This document shows positions 2,763 through 24,376 of a stretch of DNA of 63,672 nucleotides, piece by piece (the stretch's first letter is position 1; each line of letters opens with the position of its first letter). The stretch comes from Dehalococcoidia bacterium. Its GTDB lineage: Bacteria > Chloroflexota > Dehalococcoidia > UBA2979. The position numbers and the translations under genes were made by a program. The stretch spans positions 1 to 63,672 of the forward strand of contig QZJI01000057.1 in assembly GCA_003599735.1 (NCBI GenBank), read 5' to 3'. The notes below the pieces were generated by a model. It worked only from the letters and a program-made list of their open reading frames with translations, had not been told where the DNA came from and made no database searches.

Positions 2763-2763
2763 C

Positions 2764-4487: not shown

Positions 4488-4489
4488 GC

Positions 4490-6684: not shown

Positions 6685-7761
6685 ATGCCGACCTGCTTGT
6701 TCGCGAGGTGCGCTGTGCCGCGCCTTGAATCACTGGCGGTCGGCGGCTACTTCCCGACGTCGCCCGAGGTCGTGGACCGCATCGCAGCGATGATCCATCC
6801 CACCTCGCACGGGGGCCGGGTCGCGGTGCGGCTGCTCGACCCGTGCGCCGGGACCGGAGCGGCGCTGCAGCAGCTCGCCGCGGCGATCGGCGGCGAGACC
6901 TACGGCGTCGAGCTCGAGGCCGACCGCTACGAGGAGGCCGCGCAGCTCCTCGACCACGCACTCCCGGGCAGCGCGTTCAGCGCCCGCATCGAGGAAGGCG
7001 CGTTCTCGTGCCTCTTCCTCAACCCGCCGTACGACCTCGACATGGAGGCGCGACGGCTGGAGCACACGTTCCTCACCGGCATGACGAAGCTGCTCCGCCC
7101 CGGCGGGCTGCTGATCTACATCGTGCCGCAGCGCAGACTCGCGACGTCGGCCCGCTACCTGGCGAGTCACTACCAGGACCTCGCCTGCTGGCGGTTCCCC
7201 GACGGCCTGTTCGAGACGTTCGAGCAGGTCGTGGTCGTCGGGGCTCGACGCGAGCAGCCGGTCTCGGACGGCGCTACGCGCGCGACGGTCGAGGCTTGGG
7301 CACTCGAGCCGCTGCCGCCGCTCCCCGACACGGGTGAGACGCGCCAGCAGCGCGCGCTGCCGGTGCTCCCGGCCGGTGACGTGCTGTTCACGTCGTTCAC
7401 GTTCGACCCGGACGAGGCGGCGAGCGAAGCGCGTCGCTCCGGTGTGTGGACGCACGCGGCGCTGATCGAGCGGCTCTGGCCGCCCGAGGAGCGGCGGGTG
7501 CGCCCGCTGATGCCGTTGCGACGCGGACACCTCGCGGTGATGGTCGCAGCCGGGTTCCTGGACAGCCTCGTCCTCGAGTCCGGTCAGCGGCGGCTGCTCG
7601 TGAAGGGACGGACGTACAAGGTCTCTGTCCCCGTCTACTCGCCGGACCCCGAGGTCGAGGTGGAGCGCGAGGTGCTGCGCACCTCCGTGACGGTGCTCGA
7701 CCTGCGCACCGGCGACGTTGAGGTGATCGACACGGGCGCCGGGGACGCACACCGCGCGTGA
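6685..7761 (+). CDS. SAM-dependent DNA methyltransferase (N6-adenine/N4-cytosine type, DUF6094-like orphan MTase)
   Basis: Motif I LLDPCAGTGAAL and motif IV FLNPPYD. The N-terminal GGYFPTSPEVV is typical of the plasmid/ICE orphan MTase family. Confidence 0.8.
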   Translation: MPTCLFARCAVPRLESLAVGGYFPTSPEVVDRIAAMIHPTSHGGRVAVRLLDPCAGTGAALQQLAAAIGGETYGVELEADRYEEAAQLLDHALPGSAFSARIEEGAFSCLFLNPPYDLDMEARRLEHTFLTGMTKLLRPGGLLIYIVPQRRLATSARYLASHYQDLACWRFPDGLFETFEQVVVVGARREQPVSDGATRATVEAWALEPLPPLPDTGETRQQRALPVLPAGDVLFTSFTFDPDEAASEARRSGVWTHAALIERLWPPEERRVRPLMPLRRGHLAVMVAAGFLDSLVLESGQRRLLVKGRTYKVSVPVYSPDPEVEVEREVLRTSVTVLDLRTGDVEVIDTGAGDAHRA

Positions 7762-9905
7762 CCACGCTGCCCGAGCTCCTCTCCGAGCACGGAGAGGCGA
7801 TCACGCGCGCGGTGCTGCGCGCGTACCCGCCCGTCTACACGGCGCGCAACCGCGACGGCTGGGGCTTCGACCTGTCGCGGCTCAAGCGCCGTCCGATGGG
7901 TGCGCAGGGCGACGCGATCCGCGCGACCGCCGTCTCGCTGCGTTCTCACCGCGGCACGAACGTGGTCGGGGAGATGGGCACCGGCAAGACGATGATCGCC
8001 GCTTCGGCGGCGTACATCGCGGGCTTCCGGCGCATCCTCGTCCTCTGTCCGCCGCACCTCACGCGGAAATGGAAGCGTGAGGTGGAGGAGACGGTGCCGC
8101 TGGCGGCAGCGGTGATCGTCAGCACGATCACGGATCTGAACCGGCTGCCGCGCGATACGCGGTGGCCGCTCTTCGTGATCCTGTCACGGGAGCGCGCGAA
8201 GCTCTCCTACCGCTGGACGCCCGCCGTGCGCCGGCGTCCGGACAACGCCGCCGGTCACGCCGTCTACGACGAGCGCGGCGAGCTGGTGCGGCGCAACTGC
8301 TGTCCCGGCTGCTGGCAGACGGTCGTCGATGACGAGGGCGTGCCGCTCGACCTCGACGAGCTGAGCCGGCGGCGACGTGTCTGTGATCGCTGCGGCTCGC
8401 CGCTCTGGCAGGCCGACCACACCGGTCCGGCGCGTGTGCCGCTCGCCGATTACATCAACCGGCGGATGCCGGGCGCGTTCGACCTCCTGGTCACCGACGA
8501 GAGTCACGAATACAAGGCCCGCGGCTCGGCGCAGGGGATCGCGGCGGCGACGCTGGCCGAAGCGTGCGTCCGCACGCTGACGCTCACCGGCACGCTGATG
8601 GGCGGCTACGCCTCGACGCTCTTCCACCTGCTGTGGCGGTTCAGCCCGGACGTTCGGGAGGAATTCGCCTACGGCGAGGAAGGCCGCTGGGTCAGCCGCT
8701 ACGGCATCGTCGAGCGGATCACCCGCCGCGGCGGCGACGACGACGTCATCGAAGACGGTCGTGCGAGCCGACGGCGCGGCTACCGCACGCGCACGGTGGA
8801 GAAGCCCGGCGTCTCACCCGCCGTGCTGTTCCACCTGATCGCGAACACCGTGTTCATCCGCCTCGCGGATGTCGCGACGGACCTCCCGCCGTATCGCGAG
8901 GAGGTCAGGTTGATCGGGATGGCCCGCGGCGACGGCGACGAGCCGTCGCAGGCGGGGGCATACCGGCGGCTCTCGGAAGACCTGCACGCGGCGCTGCTCG
9001 CCGCGCTGGCGGCCGGTTCCCGTCGGCTGCTCGGCGCGTACTTGCAGGCACTGCTGGCCTATCCCGACGCATGCACGCACGGCGAAACCGTCGTGGACCG
9101 CTCGAGCGGAGCGGTGATCGGCTCCGCACCCGCGCTGCCGGACGACCGGCTGTATCCGAAGGAGCAGGCGCTCGTGGAGCTCGCCGTCGAGGAGCGACGG
9201 CAGGGACGGCGCGTCCTGGTCTACATCACGCACACGGAGACGCGCGACCTCACGCCCCGGCTCGAGCGCGTGCTCACCGAGGCGGGGTTGCGCGTCGCGG
9301 TGCTGAAGGCGAACACCGTCGATCCCGACCGACGCGAGGAGTGGGTGACGAAGCGCGTCCGCGCAGGCGTCGACGTGCTGCTCGTCCATCCCCGACTGGT
9401 GCAGACCGGCCTCGACCTGATCGACTTCCCGACGATCGTCTGGCACGAGGTCGAATACTCGGTCTACACGATGCGACAGGCGAGCCGGCGTTCGTGGCGC
9501 ATCGGCCAGAAGCGTCCGGTGCGCGTGGTCTACTTCGCATATCGCGCCACGCTGCAAGCACAGGCGCTGTCACTCGTGGCGCGCAAGCTCCAGGCATCGC
9601 TGCTCGTCGAAGGCGAGATTGGTGATGCCGGCCTCGCGGCTTACGGCGCCGACGCGGACGACCTCACGCTGGAACTCGCCCGGTCGCTTGCGGACGGCGG
9701 CGACGTCAACGAGGAGTCGCTCGAAGCGCTCTTCGCACAGGCCCGGCTTGCCGCAGATGGCGCGCAGGAGGCCCTCGACGCTCGAGATTTCGCACTCGAA
9801 GCAACACCGACTGCGACCAGCGCGGCTATCCGCGCCGACGAGGAGCGCGTGCTTGTCCTCGCCGGCGTCGTCGACGATGACGGCACACAGATGCGCCTGC
9901 TCTGA
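7758..9905 (+). CDS. SNF2/DEAD-family helicase with inserted zinc ribbon
   Basis: Walker A GEMGTGKT, DExH LLVTDESHEY and SNF2 motif VI QASRRSWRIGQKRPV. A CPGC..CDRC insertion is present. Start overlaps the MTase stop. Confidence 0.85.
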   Translation: MTTLPELLSEHGEAITRAVLRAYPPVYTARNRDGWGFDLSRLKRRPMGAQGDAIRATAVSLRSHRGTNVVGEMGTGKTMIAASAAYIAGFRRILVLCPPHLTRKWKREVEETVPLAAAVIVSTITDLNRLPRDTRWPLFVILSRERAKLSYRWTPAVRRRPDNAAGHAVYDERGELVRRNCCPGCWQTVVDDEGVPLDLDELSRRRRVCDRCGSPLWQADHTGPARVPLADYINRRMPGAFDLLVTDESHEYKARGSAQGIAAATLAEACVRTLTLTGTLMGGYASTLFHLLWRFSPDVREEFAYGEEGRWVSRYGIVERITRRGGDDDVIEDGRASRRRGYRTRTVEKPGVSPAVLFHLIANTVFIRLADVATDLPPYREEVRLIGMARGDGDEPSQAGAYRRLSEDLHAALLAALAAGSRRLLGAYLQALLAYPDACTHGETVVDRSSGAVIGSAPALPDDRLYPKEQALVELAVEERRQGRRVLVYITHTETRDLTPRLERVLTEAGLRVAVLKANTVDPDRREEWVTKRVRAGVDVLLVHPRLVQTGLDLIDFPTIVWHEVEYSVYTMRQASRRSWRIGQKRPVRVVYFAYRATLQAQALSLVARKLQASLLVEGEIGDAGLAAYGADADDLTLELARSLADGGDVNEESLEALFAQARLAADGAQEALDARDFALEATPTATSAAIRADEERVLVLAGVVDDDGTQMRLL

Positions 9906-9992
9906 GCGCAGCACACGCGGGGCCGGGCGGCTCAAACAAATGGCCGTCCGGCATCCCGCGATCTCAAAGGACAACGAAATCAGGAGAATCAC

Positions 9993-11960
9993 ATGACTAC
10001 CACGACTGAACCGATCGCCGCGAGCGGCATCGAAGTCTGGATCCCACTGAACAAGCTAAAGAAGTCACCGAGCAACGCCCGCCATACGCCGCACGGCGAG
10101 GCGGCGATCGAGGCGCTGGCCGCGAGCATCCACGCGAAGGGGATGCTCCAGAACCTCATCGTGCAGCCGGAATGCGATCGGGCCGGGAAGGAGACCGGCG
10201 CCTACTTCGTGACCGCAGGTGAAGGCCGACGGCTCGCCCAGTTGCTGCGCGCGAAGCGCCGCCAGATCCCGAAGACCGAGCCGATTCGCTGCATTGTCGA
10301 CACGACGAACGATCCGCTGGAGGTGAGCCTCGACGAGAACGTCACGCGCACGGAGATGCACCCGGCCGATCAGTTCGAGGCGTTCCGGCGGTTGAGCGAG
10401 GAGCGCGGTTGGGGCGCCGAGGAGATCGCCTCCCGGTTCGGTGTCACGCCGAACACCGTGCGACAGCGGATGCGCCTCGCAGCGGTCAGTCCGCGATTGA
10501 TGCAGCTCTACCGGGAAGAAGAGCTGACACTCGACCAGTTGATGGCGTTCGCCATCGGCGATGACCACGCGCGGCAGGAACAGATCTACGACAGCCTCGG
10601 GTGGAACGACGAACCGCGGACGATCCGCTACCGGATGATGGAGACGCACGTCCCGCCTCGCGATCCGCGCGCGATCTTCGTCGGAATGGCCGCATACACC
10701 GAGGCGGGTGGCACGGTCGTCCGCGACCTCTTCACGGAGGAGGACGGCGGCTACTTCGAGGATGCGACACTGCTAGATCGCCTCGCCCTGGAGAAGCTCA
10801 ACAGCGTCGTCGCGGAGTTGCGGGGCGAGGGTTGGAAGTGGGCGGAAGTCTCGCTCGAATTCCCGTACGACCACGGTCTCCGGCGCGTGTACCCGCAGGC
10901 GGTGAAGCTTCCCGCGCTAACCCAGAAGCGCCTCGACGGATTCCGAGCCGAGTACGCCCGGCTCGTCGAGGAGTACGAGGGTGACGACGAGATGCCGGAC
11001 GAGATGGTCGGCCGCCTCGAAGAGCTAGAGGCCGAGATCGAGCGGCTGTCCGAGAGCGAACGCGTGTATCTCGCGGGCACGATGGCTGGAGCGGGGGTGT
11101 TCGTGTCACTCGGTCGGGACGGTGCCCCGCGCATCGAGCGCGGGTTCGTACGGCGTGAGGACGAACCGGTCTCGCAAGGCGAGACGTCCTTCGACGCGAA
11201 GATCGAGGACGATGGCGCCGAGGGGGAACGGGCGTCCGCCGACGTCGAACTCGACCGCGACGAAGGGGGCAGCGGGAAGCCGCTGTCGGATGCGCTCGTC
11301 CGCGATCTGACGGCGCACCGGACACTCGGGCTGCGCCTCGCCCTCAGCGAGCGCCCGGAGGTCGCATTGATTGCAGTGACCCACGCACTGGCTGCGCAAG
11401 GGTTCTTCCACTACTACGACGAGGTGACCTGCCTGGAGATACGCTCCAGCAGTTCCTCGCTGGGCGCCTATGCCGGCGGAATCAATGACACGGCGGCTGC
11501 GCAGGCGTTCGTCGAGCGACACGAGGCGTGGGCGAGCCAATTGCCGTCCGAGGAGGCTCAGCTGTGGGACTTCATCTCGGCGCTCGACATCGACCGTCGC
11601 ATGGGGCTGCTCGCACACTGCGCAGCGCTCACAGTATTCGCCGTTCAGCAGCGCTGGGACACGAAGCGGCGAGCGGTCGGAACCGCGAACCGCTTAGCGG
11701 AGGCCCTGGGGCTCGACATGGCCGCGCACTGGGCGCCCACGGTCACGGCTTACCTCGGCCGCGTAACGAAGGCGCAGATCGCGGATGCCGTGCGTGAGGG
11801 CGTCTCTGAGCAGGACGCGGAAGGTATCTCCAGTAAGAAGAAGCAACTGATGGCGGAGGCCGCCGAGCAACTGCTAGCCAACACCGGCTGGCTGCCCTCC
11901 CCGCTCCGCACGCCGAAGGTCAGCAACGCGGACACGGCGTCTCATCCCGACGCCGCTTGA
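9993..11960 (+). CDS. Large ParB-like (ParB/Srx N-terminal domain) protein
   Basis: KKSPSNARHTPH and the GEGRRLA ParB box, with an HTH-like IASRFGVTPNTVRQRMRLA. RBS AGGAG. 655 aa, as in plasmid/ICE ParB-like nucleases. Confidence 0.8.
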   Translation: MTTTTEPIAASGIEVWIPLNKLKKSPSNARHTPHGEAAIEALAASIHAKGMLQNLIVQPECDRAGKETGAYFVTAGEGRRLAQLLRAKRRQIPKTEPIRCIVDTTNDPLEVSLDENVTRTEMHPADQFEAFRRLSEERGWGAEEIASRFGVTPNTVRQRMRLAAVSPRLMQLYREEELTLDQLMAFAIGDDHARQEQIYDSLGWNDEPRTIRYRMMETHVPPRDPRAIFVGMAAYTEAGGTVVRDLFTEEDGGYFEDATLLDRLALEKLNSVVAELRGEGWKWAEVSLEFPYDHGLRRVYPQAVKLPALTQKRLDGFRAEYARLVEEYEGDDEMPDEMVGRLEELEAEIERLSESERVYLAGTMAGAGVFVSLGRDGAPRIERGFVRREDEPVSQGETSFDAKIEDDGAEGERASADVELDRDEGGSGKPLSDALVRDLTAHRTLGLRLALSERPEVALIAVTHALAAQGFFHYYDEVTCLEIRSSSSSLGAYAGGINDTAAAQAFVERHEAWASQLPSEEAQLWDFISALDIDRRMGLLAHCAALTVFAVQQRWDTKRRAVGTANRLAEALGLDMAAHWAPTVTAYLGRVTKAQIADAVREGVSEQDAEGISSKKKQLMAEAAEQLLANTGWLPSPLRTPKVSNADTASHPDAA

Positions 11961-12254: not shown

Positions 12255-13361
12255 ATGGATAAGGCACTCAGGCGCCGCCTCGTTCGATCTCTGAACGCTG
12301 CCCGCGGCGATCATTCGTCGAAGGACTCGATCCGACTGGCCCACGGGCCGCAACGACGTCAGCGCCAATTGGCAGAGCGCAATTGGCTTGATGCTCATCG
12401 GGCCAAAGTCCTGCCCGGCTTCGCGGAGGCATGCGAGGTCGATCCGGCCACGATGAAACCCGTCTTAGTTCCGGTCACAGCCGGGACACCGGACGCAGAC
12501 CTGTTCCGCGCCGCGACGCTGCTGTGGTCGGTACCCGTTTCTCGAGGGTACGGCCGACGAATGCGCTATCTGGTCCGCGATGATGCCAACGGCAAGATCA
12601 TTGGACTGTTTGCACTTGGCGATCCTGTCTTCAATCTCCGAGGCCGGGACGAGTGGATCGGCTGGGATGTGGCGGCGCGCCGCGAACGAATCTCTAGCGT
12701 GATGGATCTGTACATCTGTGGGGCGGTTCCGCCATACAACACGCTCCTGGGCAGCAAGCTAGTCGCGTCCCTGGCGACCTCGCAAGAAGTGGTCGACCGA
12801 TTCCGCGAGCGCTACGCGGGCCGTCGGGGGATCATCTCGGGGATCGTCAAACCGGCAGAATTGCTCGTGATCACGACGACCTCCGCGCTCGGCAAGTCGT
12901 CGCTCTACAACCGACTGAAGCTTCCGACCGATCCAGTCACTGAGTTCCACGAGATCGGATACACGCAGGGCTGGGGACATTTTTCCGTCGGCGATCGCCT
13001 CTTCATGGAGCTCCGCGATCATCTGTTGTCGGAAGATCATCGATATGCCAACGGACATCAATTCGGGACGGGGCCGAACTGGCGTCTGCGAACGATCCGA
13101 GCGGCGATGAAGTCGCTCGGCGTCAACGACGCCTTCCTGAATCACGGGATTCAGCGACAGATCTTCGCGACCGAGCTGTCCGATACGTCGCGCAAACAGC
13201 TGCGCGAAGGGATCAAACGCCGGAGAGTTCGGAGACCCTCCGCGGACGAGATTGCCGAGGCCGGCCTCGCCCGCTGGGTGCGGCCGCGGTACGCCCGTCT
13301 CGGCATACCTGCGTGGTCGCGGGCGGATCTCGAACGGTTGTTGGACGGTGACGCGGACTAG
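12255..13361 (+). CDS. DUF4338-like protein (DruA-like)
   Basis: Blocks RGYGRRMRYLVRD..NGKIIGLFALGDPVFNLRGRDEWIGW, YICGAVPPYNTLLGSKLVA, TTTSALGKSSLYNRL and GYTQGWGHFS match my recollection of Pfam DUF4338. Not verifiable without an HMM search. Confidence 0.55.
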   Translation: MDKALRRRLVRSLNAARGDHSSKDSIRLAHGPQRRQRQLAERNWLDAHRAKVLPGFAEACEVDPATMKPVLVPVTAGTPDADLFRAATLLWSVPVSRGYGRRMRYLVRDDANGKIIGLFALGDPVFNLRGRDEWIGWDVAARRERISSVMDLYICGAVPPYNTLLGSKLVASLATSQEVVDRFRERYAGRRGIISGIVKPAELLVITTTSALGKSSLYNRLKLPTDPVTEFHEIGYTQGWGHFSVGDRLFMELRDHLLSEDHRYANGHQFGTGPNWRLRTIRAAMKSLGVNDAFLNHGIQRQIFATELSDTSRKQLREGIKRRRVRRPSADEIAEAGLARWVRPRYARLGIPAWSRADLERLLDGDAD

Positions 13362-13418
13362 CGCTTGCTCGCCGCCGGCTATGTCGCAAGTCGGTGTGCG
13401 GCCGGCGCGCCGTTCAGT

Positions 13419-14672
13419 TTATTGTCGCGCCCCTCCGGAGGGGGCGCGGTTTGTGAGGGGAAACACCTCGGAGTAGTCGGATGTCGCGAGGAATATGAGA
13501 TCGTGTTCCTCGTCGCGCTCAATGCGGACGTTTAGCACTCGCATGAGCTCACCTACGCCGTAGGCCGCGGTTTCTTCGTGCGATCGGATGACCACAGAAC
13601 GTTGTTGCTCTATTCCGAAACCGCGCTGAACGGTTGCTAGCCAGGTACGCGGTCCATTTCGGGCGTCCACCAGCAGTTCCACGTCTATCGCTCGATCAGC
13701 CGAGGCAACCGACCCCGACGCAACTGAGTCCGCCAAATGGTCCCAGTAAGGATTGCAAAGCTGACGCACTTGGCAGTGGCTACAGAACGTGGCCTCCGGT
13801 CGTGCAGTCGGTGGGCGTTCGATCATTGAGCCCAGCGCAGCGGCGCTTCGTGTGCGGAGGTCGTCTTCCAGGCGGTCAAGCTCGTCGCGATCCGGAGCGG
13901 GGAAGACTTCTTCTCGAGTCGGATACGCGACGACGAGCTCCGTTGCGATTCGTCCGGATGGATTGACAGCGGCATCTCGCGCCCAAAGCAGCGCATAGAT
14001 CCGCAGTTGGGCCTCGTGGTCCTCCTGCGGGACACCGGTCTTGTAGTCAGTAATCCGGCAGTTGTCTGCGTCCAGCGATATCAAGTCAGCCTTGCCGATC
14101 CACCCCATCGACGGGACACGCAGTTCGACTTCCGCGTGGGATCCGATCCCTATGGCACGAGTCCTTTCCTCGCTAGAGCGCGGTGTCGCCCCCGACGTTC
14201 CGGCGACGACATCGCTGCGCGCGATCGTCGTTTGAACCCCTCGACGCAGTTCGGGCATCTCGAGTGTGAGCGCGCGGCGGATCGCGTCCATGCGGCGCGC
14301 AACGCGCGGATTTGTGTGGAGCGAGGACAGTACCGCTTCCGAAACAGATCGCAGGACTACCGAGTACCCGCCGAGATCCTTGAGGACAATGACGCGGCAT
14401 GGGCCATCGTGTCCGTCGCAGTGGTGAGTGGCCATCGCGCGGACAATGACTTCAAGCGCTCCATGCAACACCTCGCCCTTGAGGGTCGCGAGGAAGGGAT
14501 TATCTGGGTAGCCTCTTCGGCTCCAGATATCCGGGAAGGTCGCATGTCGAAGCATCCATCGTCGTGGACAATGCTCTACTTCCGCGAGAGTCGAATAGCT
14601 GAGTGCATTTGGCGGGGACGGCCAAGTACCGTTGCTTCGCTCTACGTCGGTCAGGAAGGCGTCGTTCGCCAT
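13419..14672 (-). CDS. Cas4/RecB-like PD-(D/E)xK nuclease with a Cys cluster
   Basis: GKADLISLD..ITDYKTG..QLRIYALL (D / D-Y-K / QxxxY motifs), plus N-terminal CPRRW and C-terminal CSHCQVRQLC (a four-Cys arrangement as in Cas4/AddB). ATG lies 1 nt after the helicase stop. Confidence 0.75.
   Translation of the reverse strand: MANDAFLTDVERSNGTWPSPPNALSYSTLAEVEHCPRRWMLRHATFPDIWSRRGYPDNPFLATLKGEVLHGALEVIVRAMATHHCDGHDGPCRVIVLKDLGGYSVVLRSVSEAVLSSLHTNPRVARRMDAIRRALTLEMPELRRGVQTTIARSDVVAGTSGATPRSSEERTRAIGIGSHAEVELRVPSMGWIGKADLISLDADNCRITDYKTGVPQEDHEAQLRIYALLWARDAAVNPSGRIATELVVAYPTREEVFPAPDRDELDRLEDDLRTRSAAALGSMIERPPTARPEATFCSHCQVRQLCNPYWDHLADSVASGSVASADRAIDVELLVDARNGPRTWLATVQRGFGIEQQRSVVIRSHEETAAYGVGELMRVLNVRIERDEEHDLIFLATSDYSEVFPLTNRAPSGGARQ
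13426..13448. terminator. GC-rich hairpin between convergent genes
   Basis: CGCGCCCCTCC GG AGGGGGCGCG (one bulge), followed by GTTTGTG on the + strand. Overlaps the last codons of the minus-strand nuclease gene. Confidence 0.4.
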
Positions 14673-14673
14673 C

Positions 14674-17600
14674 TCAACTAACGCTTCGCACGACGAAGCG
14701 ACTGGCCTCCGGAAGGTTCCGCTCGATGATCAGTTGGTCAACCAAGACGACAGCGACGGAATCTCCGAATTCCATCGCTTCGACCAAAGCCGGGTCGATA
14801 GGCGTCCCGGGTGTCAGCGGTCCGTGCAATGCGATGATGAAACTGCCGATTGACGAAGTCGCGAGAATCGGAGCAATGAAGGATCCGATCCCAGGAATAT
14901 CTAAAGCCGCGTCACGCTCAAATCGCACACCGTGGTCTTCCTGCCGAACCAGATCAGTGAATAGACGGTCAGCGGCCGCTTCCGCCCGACCGGAATCGAT
15001 CTGCGGCGCCTCGTCGAACAGAACGTAGCGCAGCAGGGTCGAGCCGAGGTGGCGGTCCAGCAAGTCATGCTCGAAGCGGTTCCTGAAGCTCCTCAAACAT
15101 CGATAGCAGGACCGGTCGCAGTTCGAGGGGCAGGTTTCCAACAGTTTCAGCGCTTGCTCGAAGAGCCCTCGACCTAGGTCGCGCGCGCGCCGAGTAAACC
15201 CGGCGCCGCCTGAGAGCGTGTCATACAGGTATATCTCCGCTTCGAGTCCCTCGTGACCAAGCTGAGTCAAGGCCGGCCTGTACTCAGCTTGGAGTTCGCC
15301 GGGCTCGATCTCCAGCATGGTGGTCGCCGCGATGGTCAGCGCCTCGGAGACCGTACGGAGGGAAACATCCGTGGCGAGATATCCGGGACGGAGCGTGAGG
15401 GGCTGCTCGACCTGGATCGAGACGAGTAGGACATCCGAAATGAAGTCCGTTCCGAGAACCAGGCCCTGGGTACTCGCCCCTCCGGGGCATTCTGGCTCAC
15501 GCATATCCGGATATGGCTTCGCGTGCGGAGCCGACGTCCGGCCCGTTGGGATCGCAGTTGGCTCGATGAGCCCGCAGCGGGTGCAGTAGCTGTAGCCGTC
15601 TTGCCTCGGACCAGTGTTGGTCACCAGGAGGTCGGTTCTTACGTAGTGCTCCCTGAGCCTCGCGGTAAGCGGTGACCAACTGGAGTCCTCAGAGGGCTCC
15701 CCTGCGATCAGTTTCGCTCGCGTCGCGTAGCTGCGAGCCGGCGAGTCGTCCGGTGACGTTCCCTCGTCGACGTTGACCGGATGTGCGAATCCGGGCGGCC
15801 TCATCCAGTTGCGAGCCGGGCCGAACGTACCTGCGTTGCCGCACGCCGGGCAAACGCGGACCTCGCCGCGCTCAGCGGTGCTGTACGGTTCGGTCCGCGC
15901 GAAGTGACATATGGAACATTCGAAATACAGGCGACGGTCGTGCCACTCGTCGTAGAGCTCGGATCGCATTGGCGAGTAAAGAGCTCCAGCTGTCCACAAC
16001 TTGCCGTCGACCCAAACTTCCTTACCGGGGGCATATTGGGTTAAGGCGACGGGCAAGCCCTGACTCGGCGAGTATTGAAATACCGGCCGGAAGCGCGTCG
16101 ATTCGTTGCGGTTGAAGACATAGAAGCTGACGACATCCGTCGGGAACGCGTATCGCGGTAGTACGCCCCGATACAGCAAGCGATCAAGCAGGTTGCGGGC
16201 AGCACGACTCGCGTCGGTCTTCTCCTCGCCCGGCTCCGACTGCACCTCCACACTCTCGGCGTCGTCATCCGCGGCGTTCCCGGTGGCTCCATCCGAAGTA
16301 TCGGCGTCGCCGCTATCCCGCGACGCGTCCCCGACGTCAATCGCCTTGTCGATCGCAGCGAGCGTCGCATCGACGATCCCAGCCAACAGCCCGCTCCGAT
16401 CGGTCCCCGCTAACTCGTGTGGCAGCCAATCGTCCGCTTCCGCGGCGAGCATCGATTGATTGGTTCGAAGCCAATCCTCGAAGTCGCGACGGTTGAGTGC
16501 GGATGTGTCACCACGGAAGTCAGGGACTGTGCCCAGCACTTCAAACAACTGGCGCTGGTCCTCGGGGGGGATCTCTGGCAGCCGCTCGTAGTGGTAGCGC
16601 TGGAGGAGGAAGGCCGTCAGGTGACGTCGAGCGATCTCAGGATTGTCGAGCGTGAGGAGTGGATCACTGACCGGCCCCCGCACCATCATCTCCGGCTCAC
16701 TGAAGTAATGCTCGTCGTGGCTGTCTGCACTGCCAAAGGCGATGACCGTGGCCACCGCATTTCCACGCCGGCCAGCGCGCCCTGCACGTTGCTGATAGTT
16801 GGAACGGGCAGGAGGCATGTTTCGCAACGCCACTCCCGACAAGACACCGATATCGATCCCGACCTCCATAGTGGTTGTCGAGGACAACACGTCGATCGCT
16901 GTTCGAGACTGGCCCGGGATTGTTGGACCGAGGTCGACATCCTGGAACAGCAGCTCGTGCTCTTCAGACTTCGAGAAGACTTCGTCAGCCTGGGCAGTGT
17001 TCAGTTGCGCCGTGTGCTCCGCCGCGATGATTGCCATCGGTGATTCGGGAGGCTCGCGGAGAGCGCGAACCGAACTGCCCCGGTAGTATGCCTTTCGGGC
17101 CGCGAAGACCGGATCAGAGTCCGGATCGACAATTTTGACCCGGTCGCGCGCGCAGTTAATGCACCGCTGCACGCCAGGAAATGGCCTCTGAGTTGTACGG
17201 CACGTTTGGCAGTATGCCCATTCACCATCTGTCTCCAGGGTGACGTGTCTGGCGCGCATCCGATACTTCCCACCCGCAACGCCCTCGCAAAATATCTCGA
17301 GTAGGACGGGGAGCCACCCTCGCTCAAATTCGCGCCGCGAGGCAGGTGTTGGCAGCCACCGTCTGATGGCTTCGAACTTACCGGTATGCGAGCGGACTCC
17401 ATCCTTCGCTTGCCACCATCCATCCGGCATGTCTGCGAACCAGATGCCCGGGACGGTCCATTGATTCAACCAAGCGCGCACGAGTGCGAGTTTCTCAGCG
17501 TCGTCTGACGCCACTCCTCCGATTGTCGGAACGCGCTCTAGTACCTGCTTGCGGAGCCCTTCCCGCTCGGCAAGTGAGGCGAGAGCGAGCGATTGAAGGC

Positions 17601-20244
17601 CGTAATAGCGATCGGTGATGGTTCTCACGATCCCACGAAGGAGCGACTGCGGCGGAGCTTCGGTGCGTAGGCCCATTACGAGTTCCAGCAGCACGACCGG
17701 ATCGGACAACTCGCCCTGACGAATGACTCGGTTCACTTCGCGCTGCGCGTCGAGCGATTCTCCGGCGCGCAGCTCAGGTCGGAGACGCACACGCAGCGAC
17801 CGCGCTGCTATTAGGACTCCGAGGAACAGGTCCTCGAGGCTGAGCGAACTCTTCACAGCGTCAACGCGCCGAAGATCCTTCATTCCTGCCAAGATCAGAG
17901 GACGGAGCACATCCTGCATCGAGTAGGTCTGCAGATTCGGCGCCAGCCGTGCCGCCGTTTGTCGCGAGTCGGAGAAGGTCAACACCTTTCGACCACGGAG
18001 AGGCGCGAAGTCCGAGTATGCCTGGCTCGCCGGCTGCACTTGGAGCTGTCGAGCGACTAGCGCCTGGAACGGCTGATCGCCCTTCGTTTGATGATCCTGG
18101 ACCGAAGATCGGCCGTATCCGGCGAACTGCTTGCAAACTCCGCACGGCCTGAATTCACCCCCCGATCCGTCGATCGACGGGCCCCCTTCATCGTCGTCTT
18201 CCGCGGAAGCGGCGTCTCCGCTGCTCCGGTCGCGCTTGAGAAAGACCTGCCGCGTCCGGTCGCCAGGCATCCAGGGATTCAGGCGGCCGGTCACAAGATC
18301 GAGTTGGAATGGCTCTACGAGTTCTGGAATCGGGTCTTCTAGGCAGAGGTCGAGTGGCAGGAGTTCGGTCACGAGTCCGCCAGCAGTGAGAAACCGCTCG
18401 CCCGGCTCTGACCAGAGGTAGTTCGGGTGGGTAAGGTCATCGGTGTACGCGCGGGCGTAGGCTGCGCCGCAACTGCGGCACGTATACAACTCAAAGACCC
18501 GCGCACCGCATGCACATGTGTCCTGAGGTTGGGCGAAAAGCTGCCCCACTGGGCGTGGTGCTCCCGGACGCACTGCAGAGCACGCTGGATCGATGCACGC
18601 CCAGAGACCGGGAAGTCCACGGAAGAAGGAGTGAACACGACAGGGAAGCAGGCTCGGTTCGCTCGCGTCGCGTTTCGCAGCGCTCCCAAGCGAGATCAGC
18701 GCAGTCAACGCGCGATCGGCCACTTCCTTCTCGGCCGTCGGGAAAATTAGCGCTCCCAGGCTGTCGAGGCGCTGCGCCGCCTGCATGGTGAGGTTCACCA
18801 ACAGGCTCATCGGTGGGTACTGCGCGAGTGCTTCGAACAGCGTCTGAGGGAGAGAGGATGTGGTGGACGTCGCCCGGAACCTTAAGAACGGCTCGATCAG
18901 AGCACGTTTGAGCTCATCGTCATCGGCCTCGGCGAACCCATCGAGATCGAGAGCTGCCAGGACACGGGCATCGGCTTCGGAACCATGCCCTTCGCTCGGT
19001 CGGAGAGCGAGATCACCGGTGATGGTCTCAAAATCGTGCTCGCGTTTGCCCGACAACTGAGCTGCGAAGGCATTCGCCAATGTTGGGTCGCCGAAACTCG
19101 CGCTCGTGCAGATCACTTGCAGGCGGTCTGCGGGAATGCCAAGTCGCGCGCGAAGACGACGAAGGAGGAGGCCAACCTCGGCGCCTGCGGCACCTCGGTA
19201 AAGGTGTGCCTCATCGATCACGAGGAGCAGCCGCTCATCGGGATTCTCGGCCAGCCACCGGCGTGTCAGGTCGAAGATTGGACGTTCGAGGGGACGCATG
19301 AGCATGTACTCGAGCATCGAGTAGTTCGTCACCAACACGTCGGGCGGCGCGGCCAGCACTTCGTGTCGAGTTAGAAGTTCTGGGTCCTCTGGAAGCATGA
19401 CGGCACGTACAAAGTCACCGTTCGAGCTCTGCCATCGCGTGCCTGACTTCCCGTACCAACGTTCCAGATCGGGCTTGGCGGGCCATTTGCCCCGCGCCTG
19501 CAGCGTGTCCATCAAAGTTGCTGCGGCATCCCGCGCCTCAGATGGGTCGCCAGACGCCTTCTCGAGTAGTTCGACGTAAAACTGTCCAAGGGGACGGAGC
19601 TTGGCTTGGTCCTTCGTCGAGGTGCGAACACCGGGATAGAGCGTTCGACTCGTGTACCGCGCGAAGCGAGCCGGACGTCCGGACCATCGATTGAAGGCAG
19701 CCCGCACTCCCGAATCTCCGAGCATGAGACGGAGCCGTCCGAGTTGGTCGTTAACGAGCGCGTTCATTGGATACAGGACTATCGCTCGCAACGACGGAAC
19801 GGCGAACGACTTCGGGCGGTCCGCCGCCTCGATGGCGAGCTTCCCCAAGATCGGTAGCAAGAACGACTCGGTCTTCCCGGAGCCGGTGCCGGTTGTGACC
19901 ACAAGACTTCGCTTGTCGTTCAAGCTGACGGTGAGAGCCTTCCCCTGGTGGTCATAGGGAGGGTCGTGAAGAAGCGCCGAACCGTCGTCCCGATGCGCCA
20001 TGCTGTGAAGCAATTCCGCCGCCGGCGTCGGGAGACCGAGATCGCTGAAGGGCGTACCAGACTGATATCTCGGCGTGGACTCGATGTACGGAACTTGGAA
20101 GATGACGCCAGGTTGGTCGAGCAATGCGCCGCGATCGCGAACGACCTCCTCACTTCCAATGTGGTAGGCCGCCTCGATGTAGTCGCGTAGCGCATTGCGG
20201 ATCTCGTCAATCGTCCCCGAGATTGTTGCCGGACGGGTCGTCAT
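14674..20244 (-). CDS. Giant DEAD/DEAH helicase with C-terminal DUF1998/MZB domain (COG1205, DruE-like), 1856 aa
   Basis: Motif I TGTGSGKTESFLLPIL, motif II VIDEAHLYRG, motif [12 protein letters not shown]. Several CxxC zinc ribbons. C-terminal CPSNCDRSCYRCLRSFRNRFEH. Start set at ATG 20244 (MTTRPATISG), 5 nt after the upstream stop. Confidence 0.85.
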   Translation of the reverse strand: MTTRPATISGTIDEIRNALRDYIEAAYHIGSEEVVRDRGALLDQPGVIFQVPYIESTPRYQSGTPFSDLGLPTPAAELLHSMAHRDDGSALLHDPPYDHQGKALTVSLNDKRSLVVTTGTGSGKTESFLLPILGKLAIEAADRPKSFAVPSLRAIVLYPMNALVNDQLGRLRLMLGDSGVRAAFNRWSGRPARFARYTSRTLYPGVRTSTKDQAKLRPLGQFYVELLEKASGDPSEARDAAATLMDTLQARGKWPAKPDLERWYGKSGTRWQSSNGDFVRAVMLPEDPELLTRHEVLAAPPDVLVTNYSMLEYMLMRPLERPIFDLTRRWLAENPDERLLLVIDEAHLYRGAAGAEVGLLLRRLRARLGIPADRLQVICTSASFGDPTLANAFAAQLSGKREHDFETITGDLALRPSEGHGSEADARVLAALDLDGFAEADDDELKRALIEPFLRFRATSTTSSLPQTLFEALAQYPPMSLLVNLTMQAAQRLDSLGALIFPTAEKEVADRALTALISLGSAAKRDASEPSLLPCRVHSFFRGLPGLWACIDPACSAVRPGAPRPVGQLFAQPQDTCACGARVFELYTCRSCGAAYARAYTDDLTHPNYLWSEPGERFLTAGGLVTELLPLDLCLEDPIPELVEPFQLDLVTGRLNPWMPGDRTRQVFLKRDRSSGDAASAEDDDEGGPSIDGSGGEFRPCGVCKQFAGYGRSSVQDHQTKGDQPFQALVARQLQVQPASQAYSDFAPLRGRKVLTFSDSRQTAARLAPNLQTYSMQDVLRPLILAGMKDLRRVDAVKSSLSLEDLFLGVLIAARSLRVRLRPELRAGESLDAQREVNRVIRQGELSDPVVLLELVMGLRTEAPPQSLLRGIVRTITDRYYGLQSLALASLAEREGLRKQVLERVPTIGGVASDDAEKLALVRAWLNQWTVPGIWFADMPDGWWQAKDGVRSHTGKFEAIRRWLPTPASRREFERGWLPVLLEIFCEGVAGGKYRMRARHVTLETDGEWAYCQTCRTTQRPFPGVQRCINCARDRVKIVDPDSDPVFAARKAYYRGSSVRALREPPESPMAIIAAEHTAQLNTAQADEVFSKSEEHELLFQDVDLGPTIPGQSRTAIDVLSSTTTMEVGIDIGVLSGVALRNMPPARSNYQQRAGRAGRRGNAVATVIAFGSADSHDEHYFSEPEMMVRGPVSDPLLTLDNPEIARRHLTAFLLQRYHYERLPEIPPEDQRQLFEVLGTVPDFRGDTSALNRRDFEDWLRTNQSMLAAEADDWLPHELAGTDRSGLLAGIVDATLAAIDKAIDVGDASRDSGDADTSDGATGNAADDDAESVEVQSEPGEEKTDASRAARNLLDRLLYRGVLPRYAFPTDVVSFYVFNRNESTRFRPVFQYSPSQGLPVALTQYAPGKEVWVDGKLWTAGALYSPMRSELYDEWHDRRLYFECSICHFARTEPYSTAERGEVRVCPACGNAGTFGPARNWMRPPGFAHPVNVDEGTSPDDSPARSYATRAKLIAGEPSEDSSWSPLTARLREHYVRTDLLVTNTGPRQDGYSYCTRCGLIEPTAIPTGRTSAPHAKPYPDMREPECPGGASTQGLVLGTDFISDVLLVSIQVEQPLTLRPGYLATDVSLRTVSEALTIAATTMLEIEPGELQAEYRPALTQLGHEGLEAEIYLYDTLSGGAGFTRRARDLGRGLFEQALKLLETCPSNCDRSCYRCLRSFRNRFEHDLLDRHLGSTLLRYVLFDEAPQIDSGRAEAAADRLFTDLVRQEDHGVRFERDAALDIPGIGSFIAPILATSSIGSFIIALHGPLTPGTPIDPALVEAMEFGDSVAVVLVDQLIIERNLPEASRFVVRSVS

Positions 20245-20249
20245 CGTTC

Positions 20250-21338
20250 CTAAACCTCCACGTCGATGTCTAGCCAGAGCATCTTCGTGACGAAGGCGAG
20301 CTCCTCTTCGACCTCTCCCGGCATCAAGGCGTACGACACAAGCGCACCTCGAGCGGCGATTGGTAAACCGCGCCTGTCCCAGCGGCGTTGAAGCCAACTT
20401 GGCGGCGGTGCGAATAGCGAGAGTACATTCACGCTCGCGTCGCGTGTTACTCGAACGCGCTGCGGATGTCCGCGTACCGCGTCGATGGCCGCCTGTAAAT
20501 GCCAAGCTTCATCGGCACCTCTTGCGAGCGATCCATCCAGCGGAAAATCGACGAAGCGTTGTGGTTGCCCCCCTACCACCTCGACATAGCACCAGAGATC
20601 ACTCCCGTAGGCCTGAGTACGCCGAGCGACGTACCTGCCCGTGTCGCGGGCGGAGGGTTCTCGCCAGCGACCCTTGTAATAGTTCGTGGGTGCCGCTGCA
20701 TCGAGTAGCCGGAGTCCGGGGATCTCCCCTGACGGTCCGGCAGCCTCGAGGTGAAGATCCTTCTCTCGCAGTACGTCGATCGCTGGCGCCATCAACGGGC
20801 ACCTGAGCCAGACCTCTTGACTAACCTCGTGTAGCCCGTAGTCGTCGAGAAGCGTCGCAATGTCGGTCCCCGAGGCCGCGTTGATGATGCGGAGGTGGTG
20901 TTCATGCTCGATGAGTACCGCAAGGGATTCGCCCACGAGGGAGGCTCCTTCCGGTCGCACCCCAAGTAGAAGAAATGCCCCTCCTGACCTCCGAACAAAC
21001 GCGGGCGGGCCGAGGTAGAGCATCCGCCGCCGACGCAGCGTCGCGTTGTCAACCTCTGAGACCTCCAGCAGGTCGCCGGACGCAACTAAGGACTCAAGGA
21101 TTCCCGCGAGGGTCTCGCGCAAGGACGGGCCATCGCCGGCGAGCCCCTCCAGCGGTCTCGCGGTCAAGGCCACGAGCCCGGCAGGAGTGATCGGACAACG
21201 GAAGGACGCCGTTCGGCGAAGTGCTGCAGCGAGCGCCTCGTGGGCTGTGAGGTCCATCGCCGTAGCGTCGAGACCAAGCGCGTCGGTGCAAGCAGCCATT
21301 ACCTCGGCGGGGGTCAGAATGTCTACTCCCATGACCAC
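20250..21338 (-). CDS. Hypothetical protein (362 aa), coupled to the DruE-like helicase
   Basis: Long ORF overlapping the upstream gene by 16 nt and ending 5 nt before the helicase ATG. No domain recognised. Confidence 0.6.
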   Translation of the reverse strand: MVMGVDILTPAEVMAACTDALGLDATAMDLTAHEALAAALRRTASFRCPITPAGLVALTARPLEGLAGDGPSLRETLAGILESLVASGDLLEVSEVDNATLRRRRMLYLGPPAFVRRSGGAFLLLGVRPEGASLVGESLAVLIEHEHHLRIINAASGTDIATLLDDYGLHEVSQEVWLRCPLMAPAIDVLREKDLHLEAAGPSGEIPGLRLLDAAAPTNYYKGRWREPSARDTGRYVARRTQAYGSDLWCYVEVVGGQPQRFVDFPLDGSLARGADEAWHLQAAIDAVRGHPQRVRVTRDASVNVLSLFAPPPSWLQRRWDRRGLPIAARGALVSYALMPGEVEEELAFVTKMLWLDIDVEV

Positions 21339-24300
21339 CCCCGATAGGAGAGCAGCGAGTCGGGGGCGGCGCTCGCGTAGTGGGTCGCGAGAACGAGGTA
21401 GCGCGCGGCCCGCAGGATGAAGGGCACTTCCAGGGCAATCGTCAATGCCTGTTCGATGTCATCTGCCCCTGCCCACGTGTCGAGCGTCCCTGGGGAACTC
21501 GCGAGGCGCAGCACGAATTCTGCGAGCCAACGGCGGTCTACCGGTTCGGAATGAAGCACCGCGCGGCTGAGCTCCGCGAACTCGCGCACGCGCTCCGGGG
21601 TCGACAACGTCGGCGAACTGTTCACAAGTTGCTTCAGATCCAATCGGAAGCCACTGTGCTCTCCCGGACGCGCGAGCGCGGCGTCCAGTTGCACGCGCTC
21701 GATGGACTGGTCCTCCTCGACGCGCGCCTCGGCCTGTTCCCACCAACCGCCTCCTATCACCCCCGCGATCGCTTGAGGGAAGGCGCGTACAACACGGTCT
21801 CGTCCGGCCGCTGCGAATGGATTGCCAGGAACCTCTGCCTGAGCCCATGCCGCCGTGGTGCTGATCCAAGCCCGAAGGGCTTCGAGGGTACGACTCCGGG
21901 TCAGGAAACGCGGGGGCACGCTCATCCGCTGTAGGTCGACAAGGCCTCGGATGAGTGGAGGCATGATCGACGTCGCCACGTACCCGGCACTGCGTGCGAC
22001 GTAGAGTCCGCCGGCACCGGCGCGGAAAAGCCCATCTTCGCCGACGTCGACGACGGTAGTCGCGTCGGGCTGGTCGAAATCGAGGTGCTCAACGCGGACC
22101 ACCTGATCACCCACGTTATCGTGGAGTCGCAGGAAGTAGCCGTTGCGATCCTCACCTGAACCCCATCGGAGAGGAACGAATGCGCGCTCACACTGAAGCG
22201 ACACAGCCCCCAACTCGGCGTGCGTGATCTCGATCACACCACGATTCGCGCTGTCGTACCCCTGATAGACGTCCTTTGCCTGGCGAAAGTCGCGATCGAA
22301 GATCTCCCGCCAGACGTGCGCGGCGATCGGAAGCGTGAGGGGGCCCAACTGCTTGTGGGCGATCCGTTCCGATCCCCGCTCGAGCGATACCCCTACCTCC
22401 ACTGCGACACCTGACGGGCCGAGGACATCGATGGTGGCGCGGCCCTCCCACAAGTCTTCAAGAGTCGGGGACGCCGGCCCAGCGAGAATGAGGAGAGCTT
22501 CGCGGTAGGTCCCACTTGCCGCCCGGACTCGTGGCTCTCGAACGACGATTTCGAGGTAACCCTCAACGGGCGGCGCAGTCGCGTCATCGAGCAGCAGGGC
22601 AACGCGCACCATGTGCGAGCCCACATCGAGTCCCGTGAAGCGAACGTAGGCGGATTCGCTCCGCCCGCTCGGCCATCCAACGCGCACCGGCTCCCCGCCG
22701 TCGAGGATGACGCCGCAATGGCGGACTGCGAGCGTCGACGTAATGCCCAGAATGGGCTCGTCACCGACGACCCATTCGCCGCTCCCTTCTCCGTCCCACG
22801 AAGCCGGTTCCAGTCCCGCCGGTCTCACGTCCACACCCGTCGTGACCCCGATGTTTAGGCGGGCAATCTCAAGGACATCTGCCGAAGAGATTTCGGCCGG
22901 CACCGACATCGTGTACGCGTACACCCCCGCGCAGTCGGCTGATGTGGGAGCGATCCAAGCTGGCAGCTGATCGAACTGGCGCTCCGTGATGAGGATGTAT
23001 TCGTGTCCCGGCCGAACCGCCTTCGTTCGAACCTCGGTAGCGTTTGTCGGACCAGCGAGCCTGAAGACCCAACAAGGACCGGCCGTAAATCGGCATTCGT
23101 CGGCCAGAAGTTGGTTTAGGTGGGCCTCACATTTCTCGAGTTGCAACACCGGGACGTCCGCTCCAGGCCACCTATCCAGTTCGACGCGGAGACCGACATA
23201 AAGGAGGTAGCTGGGCGGCAGCGGCGGTCGCCTTGTCATGCCGGCGACCATGCAGCGAGAGGTGGAGAGTGCAACCTCAAGCTCAGGGAAGCGCGCAATG
23301 AGAGGAGCGAAGTCCGGGGGTTCGACGAGAAGCTGCCACCCTACGGCGTTTCGCTGAAGCCCAAACTTCGCTGGAGCAACCGGCCGAGCTTCGCTGCCGC
23401 GCTCGTCGGGCCGACCGACGGATGGCGCGCTCCGGACGGCATGGGTCGCGAGCCCCCGGAGCTGAACCTTCGCCGCCGAAGTCCTCGCGTCCGTGAGCCA
23501 TCGTCGAGCCTCGCGCTCTGCCGATAGGTCGGAAACGATGCGTCGGAGCGTCGAGGCCAGCAAGAGAGGCGTTTCGCCAGCATCGACTAGGAGGGCGGAC
23601 GCGACCTGGCCGAGCAACGCGGTGTTCTGACAGAAGACGCGAAAGCGGGCTGAGGTCCTCACCGCCCGAGCCGCGAGTCTCACGCCGAGCTCGTTGGGGT
23701 TCGCGAGGAGGTTCGCAGTTAGGTGATGGCGGTACTCATACAACAACCGGGCGAGATGAAGTTGGAGATCGGTTGGTAGGACCGCGTGGGTGATAGGCCA
23801 GCAGATGTTGGTGAACTGCCCCGCCCATGCACCCTGCGGCTGAGCTCCTCCGAATGCGGATGCGAACTCTTTGAATCGATCCCGGAGCCAGGTGCGGTCG
23901 CCGTACCGCGTCCAGCCAGGAGTGGTCGCTTCGAAGGTCTGCCAGTATTCCTCGCCCTCATAGTGGTAGCCGACTTCCGCGGCGTAGACGAGGAGCGCCA
24001 GTGCCCATTTCCGTGATGGCGGTCCCTTCTGCAGGGCGGCGCGCACGTTCGAGCGGACTGTCTCGAGTTCGCTGGGATCGAGGCCGTGCTCGAGGATGAA
24101 TACCGGCCCTGTCCCCACCTGAATTGCGCGCACCGCGCGAAGCTCGCCGAAATGCGTGCTGAGCCTGTCGCTCAGGGCTTCGAGGATTCCAGCAGGCCCA
24201 ACGGGGACATGAACAGGCGCGCGAGGGGACTCCCCCAAGGTGCGTTCCGGTTCCTGGGACGCGGAAGGTCCATTCATCGCGACTACCAAACGTGGATCGG

Positions 24301-24376
24301 CACGCGTCAGAGTCGGCTGACGACCGCTGAGCCGCTGTTGGCGCCTCGCGACGCCATCCCCCAGCTCTGAGCCCAT
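21323..24376 (-). CDS. Large hypothetical protein (1017 aa), first gene of the DruE-like operon
   Basis: Uninterrupted 3-kb ORF. A perfect TATAAT lies 40 nt upstream. No catalytic motif recognised. An alternative start is MNGPS, 33 codons in. Confidence 0.6.
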   Translation of the reverse strand: MGSELGDGVARRQQRLSGRQPTLTRADPRLVVAMNGPSASQEPERTLGESPRAPVHVPVGPAGILEALSDRLSTHFGELRAVRAIQVGTGPVFILEHGLDPSELETVRSNVRAALQKGPPSRKWALALLVYAAEVGYHYEGEEYWQTFEATTPGWTRYGDRTWLRDRFKEFASAFGGAQPQGAWAGQFTNICWPITHAVLPTDLQLHLARLLYEYRHHLTANLLANPNELGVRLAARAVRTSARFRVFCQNTALLGQVASALLVDAGETPLLLASTLRRIVSDLSAEREARRWLTDARTSAAKVQLRGLATHAVRSAPSVGRPDERGSEARPVAPAKFGLQRNAVGWQLLVEPPDFAPLIARFPELEVALSTSRCMVAGMTRRPPLPPSYLLYVGLRVELDRWPGADVPVLQLEKCEAHLNQLLADECRFTAGPCWVFRLAGPTNATEVRTKAVRPGHEYILITERQFDQLPAWIAPTSADCAGVYAYTMSVPAEISSADVLEIARLNIGVTTGVDVRPAGLEPASWDGEGSGEWVVGDEPILGITSTLAVRHCGVILDGGEPVRVGWPSGRSESAYVRFTGLDVGSHMVRVALLLDDATAPPVEGYLEIVVREPRVRAASGTYREALLILAGPASPTLEDLWEGRATIDVLGPSGVAVEVGVSLERGSERIAHKQLGPLTLPIAAHVWREIFDRDFRQAKDVYQGYDSANRGVIEITHAELGAVSLQCERAFVPLRWGSGEDRNGYFLRLHDNVGDQVVRVEHLDFDQPDATTVVDVGEDGLFRAGAGGLYVARSAGYVATSIMPPLIRGLVDLQRMSVPPRFLTRSRTLEALRAWISTTAAWAQAEVPGNPFAAAGRDRVVRAFPQAIAGVIGGGWWEQAEARVEEDQSIERVQLDAALARPGEHSGFRLDLKQLVNSSPTLSTPERVREFAELSRAVLHSEPVDRRWLAEFVLRLASSPGTLDTWAGADDIEQALTIALEVPFILRAARYLVLATHYASAAPDSLLSYRGWSWE

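Follow-up and report, generated by a model that had tools for sequence, protein, structure and literature searches.

The Druantia locus and its terminal nuclease gene

Contig QZJI01000057.1 of a Dehalococcoidia bacterium (assembly GCA_003599735.1), analysed here over a stretch of 63,672 nucleotides (nt) that we call the window, carries a locus that is recognisable by its gene content as a type I-like variant of the Druantia defence system lacking recognisable DruB and DruC. Five genes make up this locus, encoding DruA, a conserved protein of ~1000 amino acids (aa), DruD, the helicase DruE and, directly behind DruE, a nuclease. The latter, which is the subject of this study, is by its motifs and predicted fold a PD-(D/E)xK nuclease of the RecB/AddB/AdnAB/Cas4 class, and synteny across related loci identifies it as an integral and presumably co-translated component of the type I-like Druantia variant. 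The features of the locus are as follows, with positions counted in the window and the nuclease gene listed first:

13419 to 14672, minus strand: nuclease gene, last of the Druantia operon, encoding a 417-aa protein with a predicted iron-sulfur (Fe-S) PD-(D/E)xK domain and a predicted OB fold (open reading frame (ORF) and translation, ATG start)
14673 to 14676, minus strand: translational-coupling junction, consisting of the DruE stop codon TGA (14674-14676) and the single spacer base G (14673) in front of the nuclease ATG (sequence)
13752 to 14603, minus strand: nuclease domain, residues 24-307 (extent of the PDDEXK_1 match; invariant columns; Foldseek)
Residues of the nuclease domain: Cys35 at 14568-14570; D196 at 14085-14087; D209-x-K211 at 14040-14048; C297-x2-C300-x5-C306 at 13755-13784; also H70, E181 and Q222/Y226
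13455 to 13691, minus strand: predicted OB fold at the C-terminus, covering residues ~328-406 with six beta strands (secondary structure in both models; Foldseek)
14674 to 20244, minus strand: DruE (type I), a YprA-family superfamily 2 (SF2) helicase with MZB/DUF1998, 1856 aa from the ATG at 20244 (PADLOC DruE1, 1941 bits; Pfam DEAD, Helicase_C and MZB)
20250 to 21338, minus strand: DruD (PADLOC DruD1, E 2.5e-113, 377 bits)
21323 to 24376, minus strand: conserved protein of ~950-1017 aa in the position of DruB/DruC (homology to a Nitrosococcus pNWAT01 protein)
12255 to 13361, plus strand: DruA (DUF4338), convergent with the operon (Pfam DruA, E 4.5e-70; PADLOC DruA1, E 2.5e-133, 443 bits)
13392 to 13412, plus strand: GC-rich, terminator-like hairpin within the 57 nt that separate the convergent genes of DruA and the nuclease (consensus scan only)

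In the window sequence, the ATG of the nuclease gene occupies positions 14672-14670 and thus follows the DruE stop codon (TGA, 14676-14674) after a single nucleotide, exactly where an earlier note on this DNA, referred to below as the original prediction, had placed it. The feature drawn there, 13419-14676, coincides with ours at 13419, whereas its other end must include the helicase stop codon, since the ORF reaches only to 14672. The public gene call (P0001) comprises only 378 aa beginning at Met40 and therewith omits the conserved N-terminal stretch at 14556-14672 (minus strand), including the predicted Fe-S ligand Cys35. Because the alignments of the homologs begin at about residue 1-10 of the 417-aa form, Cys35 is invariant among them and the start codon in the relatives overlaps the DruE stop codon, the 417-aa form is probably correct and P0001 truncated. 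That the ORF is a real gene rather than a chance ORF of GC-rich DNA follows from its match to Pfam PDDEXK_1 and its many homologs.

Of the type I set DruA-DruB-DruC-DruD-DruE, the PADLOC models of DruA, DruD and DruE1 all have a match in the window. The ORF of DruE as called mechanically reaches up to a TTG at 20505, which would make it overlap DruD by 255 nt. The true start is almost certainly the ATG at 20244, as it lies 5 nt past the DruD stop codon and has a GGAGG upstream. DruB and DruC gave no PADLOC match at this locus even at E<=10, and their place is taken by the one ~1000-aa protein. For this protein, too, neither Pfam nor NCBIfam gave a match, nor did PADLOC at thresholds as loose as E<=10. 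This protein shares 32% identity (E 8e-125) with a 955-aa protein encoded between DruA and DruD on plasmid pNWAT01 of Nitrosococcus watsonii, and a counterpart was found in every related locus that reaches far enough upstream. As the homology begins near residue 65, its real start is probably located downstream of 24376.

A RecB/Cas4-class nuclease family with a predicted OB fold

Pfam assigns residues 24-307 of the nuclease to PDDEXK_1 (PF12705) with 71.8 bits (cut-off 22; E 1.1e-19), the match spanning model positions 2-247 of 247, which places the protein above threshold within the PD-(D/E)xK families as originally predicted. All motifs pointed out at that time are present, that is CPRRW (residues 35-39), GKADLISLD (193-201), ITDYKTG (207-213), QLRIYALL (222-229) and CSHCQVRQLC (297-306), and the protein displays both the RecB-type motifs D...(D/E)xK...QxxxY and the cysteines C...C-x2-C-x5-C. 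This one-plus-three cysteine pattern ligates the Fe-S cluster of Cas4 and AddB.

Among clusters formed at 90% identity, 101 homologs of ~400 aa were obtained at E<=1e-3, those listed all reaching 2e-32 or better, and a profile built from 72 of them retrieved 3332 representatives at E<=1e-3 and 741 at E<=1e-30 from clusters formed at 50% identity. No homologs were found in the plasmid or phage collections searched. For the analysis of residue conservation we used the alignment of the 72 sequences (A3), which are 30-60% identical to the window protein. The genome scan described below was run with a narrower alignment (A2), the family-wide one (A1) being too diverse for that purpose. C35, H70, E181, D196, D209, K211, Y226, C297, C300, C306 and R378 are invariant across the 72 homologs, and Q222 is kept in at least 90% of them. 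Thus, the RecB/Cas4 core with its catalytic residues D196, D209 and K211, as well as the Cas4/AddB arrangement of cysteines, both recognised in the original prediction, are conserved in these homologs. A [4Fe-4S] cluster bound by the four cysteines probably holds the nuclease fold together.

The designation as Cas4-like is appropriate as far as resemblance is concerned, but does not extend to membership of the Cas4 family: the protein stays below the curated cut-offs of both PF01930 (Cas_Cas4, 20.2 versus 22.7 bits) and TIGR00372 (31.8 versus 65 bits), and its best structural match is the nuclease domain of AdnAB. A profile search of the sequences in the PDB yielded marginal matches only (best E 0.03), the best being Cas4 SSO0001 (4ic1) with its CPRR and GRAD...K motifs aligned, and AdnB also being listed. 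As these matches were marginal, structure comparison was needed. An AlphaFold2 model computed with the 72-sequence alignment reached a pLDDT of 92.9 and a pTM of 0.90, and Foldseek searches of the PDB with this model returned the nuclease domain of AdnA/AdnB at the top (7sjr_A, 1.7e-6), followed by Dna2 (5ean, 7e-6), ACE1, Cas4 in Cas4-Cas1-Cas2 complexes, MGME1 and RecE. At lower ranks, the same list contains OB folds matching the C-terminal beta domain.

The existence of a C-terminal domain of ~110 aa had been noted before, and the domain is indeed real and conserved: R378 is invariant and D330, G340, W344, R363 and G374 are kept in at least 90% of the 72 homologs. The label 'unassigned' that it had been given can now be replaced. 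Residues 312-417 folded alone gave a pLDDT of 83.5, with the core above 90, and the top matches listed by Foldseek for this domain are nearly all OB folds (HIN, Pot1, CST, Teb1, RPA, SSB and archaeal ones; TM 0.45-0.63, probability 1.0), which identifies the C-terminal ~110 aa in the model as an OB fold. Conserved positions of basic or aromatic character in this domain include W344, R363 and R378, and the predicted fold probably grips single-stranded DNA (ssDNA).

Conserved association of the nuclease with DruE

To what extent the nuclease accompanies DruE in other genomes can be judged from two sets of loci, one anchored on the nuclease and one on DruD. The nuclease-anchored scan, which considered one genome per GTDB species, yielded 49 loci, 22 of which align over most or all of the protein. 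All 22 belong to Actinomycetota (Acidimicrobiaceae, Solirubrobacterales, Micromonospora, Nonomuraea, Microbispora, Arthrobacter, Kribbella, Nocardioides, Dermatophilaceae and Pseudonocardiaceae), and four of them (L019-L022) hold truncated or decayed copies. Without exception, the ~1000-aa protein is followed by DruD, DruE and the nuclease, all encoded on one strand, and a DruA-like gene lies immediately past this group. Four divergent homologs with 30-39% identity, checked singly, have the same order with the nuclease directly behind DruE (4/4). In total, all 26 nuclease-anchored contexts have the nuclease immediately downstream of DruE and on the strand of the helicase gene. These contexts cover several actinobacterial classes as well as metagenomic lineages, and the co-occurrence of nuclease and helicase supposed in the original prediction is thereby confirmed. 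The genes flanking the nuclease in all related loci are those of DruE and DruA, and there is no cas context. DruA is either the first gene and co-directional, or the last and convergent; the DruA-like genes in many of the convergent layouts are much more divergent (about 55-100 bits).

The remaining 27 of the 49 loci (L023-L049) were set aside, as they encode ~1000-aa AddB/AdnAB-like proteins that match the nuclease core and have no DruE nearby. Outside the family, the C-terminal nuclease core of these proteins, which come mostly from Terriglobia, is the closest relative by sequence.

The DruD-anchored scan covered metagenome contigs and was evaluated for the best 80 of 235 matches, so that this sample leans towards the relatives of the window locus. 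In 37 of these loci, DruE is complete and enough sequence follows beyond it to be informative; a full nuclease gene is present directly after DruE in 30 of them, a small remnant in two and none in five. The distance from the DruE stop codon to the nuclease start codon ranges from -13 to +14 nt in 48 loci, with a 4-nt overlap (xTGA) in 31, indicating that the tight coupling first seen in the window is a conserved trait. Synteny in all 26 nuclease-anchored contexts, presence in 30 of the 37 DruD-anchored loci and the conserved stop/start spacing are the grounds on which we regard the nuclease as an integral, co-translated component of this Druantia variant.

Among the loci that lack the nuclease, L064, L110 and L111 fall inside the nuclease-bearing group. 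In L064, the gene following DruE (17069-18304) encodes a YhcG/DUF1016 PD-(D/E)xK nuclease, and in L110 (6947-7531) a DUF4365 protein. These two cases hint that the position behind DruE might be an exchangeable slot, or else reflect the coincidences of a defence island. In L051, located on plasmid pMl2 of Sinorhizobium medicae, a type I-like Druantia is broken by the insertion sequences (IS) IS21 and IS3, and DruE is split into a DEAD-box and a DUF1998 fragment. The type I prototype of E. coli, which was sought by DNA similarity, gave no match.

As to the surroundings of the locus in the window, the left flank (2572-11960, plus strand) resembles a mobile element in that it encodes a DnaG-type primase, a DUF6094 methyltransferase, a ResIII/Helicase_C protein and a ParB-like protein; its GC content is 69.6% as compared to 62.7% for the Druantia block. 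A DUF6094 methyltransferase is also encoded near the system in L132 (L132:19179-20225). Upstream of the operon, three ORFs of 395, 864 and 382 aa (24797-29688, minus strand) matched no family save for a weak PD-T7-1 match of the ORF at 28540-29688. Neither these ORFs nor the genes of the left flank were considered parts of the system, as they have no counterparts in any related locus.

Proposed role of the nuclease and alternative explanations

In the reading that we favour, with moderate confidence, the protein serves as nuclease subunit in a type I-like Druantia system of five genes and would likely degrade the DNA unwound by DruE. Translated in coupling with DruE, the nuclease would most likely work in a complex with the helicase. 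DruE would load on exposed ssDNA of the foreign DNA and unwind in 3'-to-5' direction, while the nuclease would capture and degrade the unwound strand, most plausibly the displaced 5'-tailed strand, with the OB fold holding the ssDNA. Such an arrangement would find its parallels in AddAB/AdnAB and in a Dna2 enzyme with its parts supplied in trans. It would also supply the locus with a DNA-destroying effector, that is with an activity predicted to be lacking in type I DruE. Type I and type II DruE possess only a Vsr domain that is predicted to be inactivated, and systems based on YprA-family helicases commonly carry a nuclease, either as part of the helicase polypeptide or as a separate gene downstream (Bell et al. 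2025, PMC12458937). DruE of type III systems is a 3'-to-5' DNA helicase that unwinds from exposed ssDNA (10.64898/2026.05.13.724758), and type III DruE and DruH have themselves been reported to be nucleases.

Several observations weigh against this role. Pfam detects neither a Vsr nor any other domain in the last ~160 aa of DruE, be it the window protein (last 159 aa) or that of Nitrosococcus; the inactive Vsr domain is a prediction reported in PMC12458937. DruE C-termini in loci with and without the nuclease reveal no obvious group-specific difference. The nuclease is absent from a Nitrosococcus-like clade (L050, L108, L128 and also the IS-disrupted L051), and truncated, split or remnant copies are located behind an apparently intact DruE in L019-L022, L102 and L119/L120, suggesting recurrent decay or loss, or else frameshifts in the assemblies. 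From the nuclease-less clade and the several decayed copies it follows that the nuclease is not universally required. The idea that it compensates for a lost DruE domain was dropped as unsupported, no such difference being seen between the DruE C-termini of the two groups.

As the main alternative, the nuclease could act upstream of DruE, either by resecting the 5' strand at ends or nicks of phage DNA in 5'-to-3' direction and thereby making 3' ssDNA on which DruE can load, or by sensing ends via its Fe-S/OB module, so that other nucleases would finish the destruction. We consider action ahead of the helicase rather unlikely. Against it stands that in AdnAB and AddAB, the closest structural relatives, the nuclease follows behind the motor and cleaves the strand that has been unwound; in its favour, Cas4-family enzymes are 5'-to-3' ssDNA exonucleases (cited in PMC5704561), type III DruE needs ssDNA and 3'-to-5' polarity to unwind, and an OB fold suits the hand-over of ssDNA. 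Relatives devoid of the nuclease, which count against a general need for it, are what one would expect here if host enzymes supplied the ssDNA. A non-catalytic, regulatory subunit, that is an Fe-S/OB protein that binds DNA or DruE and gates the helicase, for instance by checking for damage or modification, appears quite improbable, because the full catalytic set (D196, D209, K211, Q222, Y226, E181 and H70) is invariant or nearly so in the 72 sequences, whose identity is 30-66%, which is not expected of an inactivated nuclease. What speaks for regulation is that the Fe-S domains of AddB- and Dna2-type proteins also serve structural and DNA-handling roles. Furthermore, type I Druantia of E. coli has reportedly been linked to N6-methyladenine (m6A) marking of host DNA, which implies a discrimination step (Ojima et al. 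2024 preprint).

Finally, the gene could be an unrelated neighbour, be it a repair nuclease acting on its own, a Cas4 of the CRISPR type or another defence gene that happens to lie beside Druantia. The resemblance of the window region to a mobile element or defence island, the YhcG and DUF4365 genes, likewise of the PD-(D/E)xK type, that follow DruE in two nuclease-less loci, and the fact that solo Cas4-like genes are common (PMC5704561) would all be compatible with this scenario. However, a position directly behind DruE on the same strand in 26 of 26 contexts and the conserved stop/start overlap are difficult to reconcile with chance, and the housekeeping AddB/AdnAB-like proteins recovered by the same scan represent a different, ~1000-aa family. 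Moreover, the protein remains under the Cas4 thresholds, the window contains no CRISPR-like array, and no Cas protein family scored above threshold among the window ORFs scanned. With no array in the window and Druantia genes as neighbours, a CRISPR context was rejected. An accidental neighbour is thus largely refuted by synteny and has a very low probability.

Novelty and implications

A link between helicase and nuclease has as such been noted previously, both through the DruK models of PADLOC-DB and in PMC5704561. What appears to be new is the extent of the nuclease association within the type I-like variant and the conserved overlap of stop and start codons. The same appears to hold for the assignment of the OB fold, for the single ~1000-aa protein replacing DruB and DruC, and for the natural pattern of gain, loss and decay.

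In the literature searched, no effector mechanism was found for type I Druantia, while type III has recently been dissected biochemically. A co-translated, predicted Fe-S nuclease with a putative ssDNA-binding fold, possessed by about four fifths of the relatives sampled, would provide a testable candidate for the missing DNA degradation, and the clades and loci that lack the nuclease or carry decayed copies offer natural controls. Tentatively, and with more doubt than conviction, one may go further and envisage a distinct and widespread Druantia subtype, composed of DruA, the ~1000-aa protein, DruD, DruE and the nuclease, in which the actual effector that degrades DNA in type I would be a Dna2-like module of Fe-S nuclease and OB fold acting in trans, and in which the slot behind DruE would be exchangeable and taken by YhcG or DUF4365 nucleases in some loci. 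If true, this would be the first concrete effector mechanism for type I Druantia, and type I systems without the nuclease, among them the E. coli prototype, would depend on a nuclease borrowed from the host. Our data also expose gaps in annotation: the ~1000-aa partner and the nuclease family are not confidently named by PADLOC, Pfam or NCBIfam, and the public call of the window nuclease drops one of the cluster cysteines.

Comparison with known systems

The closest entries in PADLOC-DB are the Druantia-named DruK models (PDLC00058-60, 'PD-(D/E)XK nuclease superfamily'), which are the top PADLOC match of the window protein and of all 72 family members. However, the match is weak and of partial coverage (39.7 and 38.5 bits, E 9e-11; best E in the family 4.9e-18), and the Cas4 models reach 35 bits. 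One of the models, PDLC00059, aligns through residue 397 and hence into the OB domain of the window nuclease, so that both may have the same architecture of two domains, although with 326-388 positions the DruK models are shorter. Since the match is barely above that of the Cas4 models, the family looks like a divergent relative of DruK and not like a member of its seed. Literature describing DruK was not found, the PADLOC paper and its supplements included.

Linkage of Cas4-like pfam12705 genes to YprA-like COG1205/DUF1998 helicases in defence islands has been described, and the authors predicted that the two act together in a defence pathway yet to be characterised (Hudaiberdiev et al. 2017, PMC5704561). 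The pfam12705 nuclease and the DUF1998 helicase placed side by side in that work belong to the same families as those studied here. The remark fills one paragraph that is older than the name Druantia, and it mentions neither an OB fold nor coupling statistics nor any connection with DruA or DruD. In view of the DruK models, of this linkage and of the reports on type III DruE and DruH as nucleases, the original prediction overstated the case in claiming that Druantia had not been described with a dedicated nuclease partner.

Pairs of a YprA helicase with a fused or downstream nuclease, as seen here, are also known from MrfA-MrfB, from DrmAB-DrmC of DISARM and from type III DruE with its PLD domain (Bell et al. 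2025, PMC12458937). These pairs use other nuclease classes, namely a DnaQ-like exonuclease, PLD and Vsr, and that work lists no Fe-S nuclease of the Cas4/AddB type for Druantia. CRISPR Cas4 (PF01930/TIGR00372) and the Argonaute-associated ACE1 share the fold and the cysteine pattern with the window nuclease, and ACE1 sets a precedent for a Cas4-like nuclease that is accessory to a non-CRISPR defence system. In contrast to both, the window nuclease is about twice the size, contains a large helical insert (residues ~61-152) and the predicted OB fold, and has no cas or Argonaute context.

In structural terms, the nuclease domains of AddB and AdnA-AdnB represent the best match, with the same PD-(D/E)xK core, and AddB carries the same four-cysteine pattern of the Fe-S cluster. 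AddAB and AdnAB act together with a DNA motor to cut unwound strands; their nuclease is fused to a helicase-like body of SF1, giving proteins of ~1000 aa, whereas the one described here is a free-standing protein of 417 aa that includes an OB fold and is paired with an SF2 helicase of the YprA type. Dna2 resembles the arrangement proposed here in that it brings an Fe-S PD-(D/E)xK nuclease and an OB fold together with a helicase that works on ssDNA. However, Dna2 unites these parts in one polypeptide with a 5'-to-3' motor of SF1B, whereas in the Druantia locus a separate SF2 protein serves as helicase and the OB fold follows the nuclease domain on its C-terminal side.

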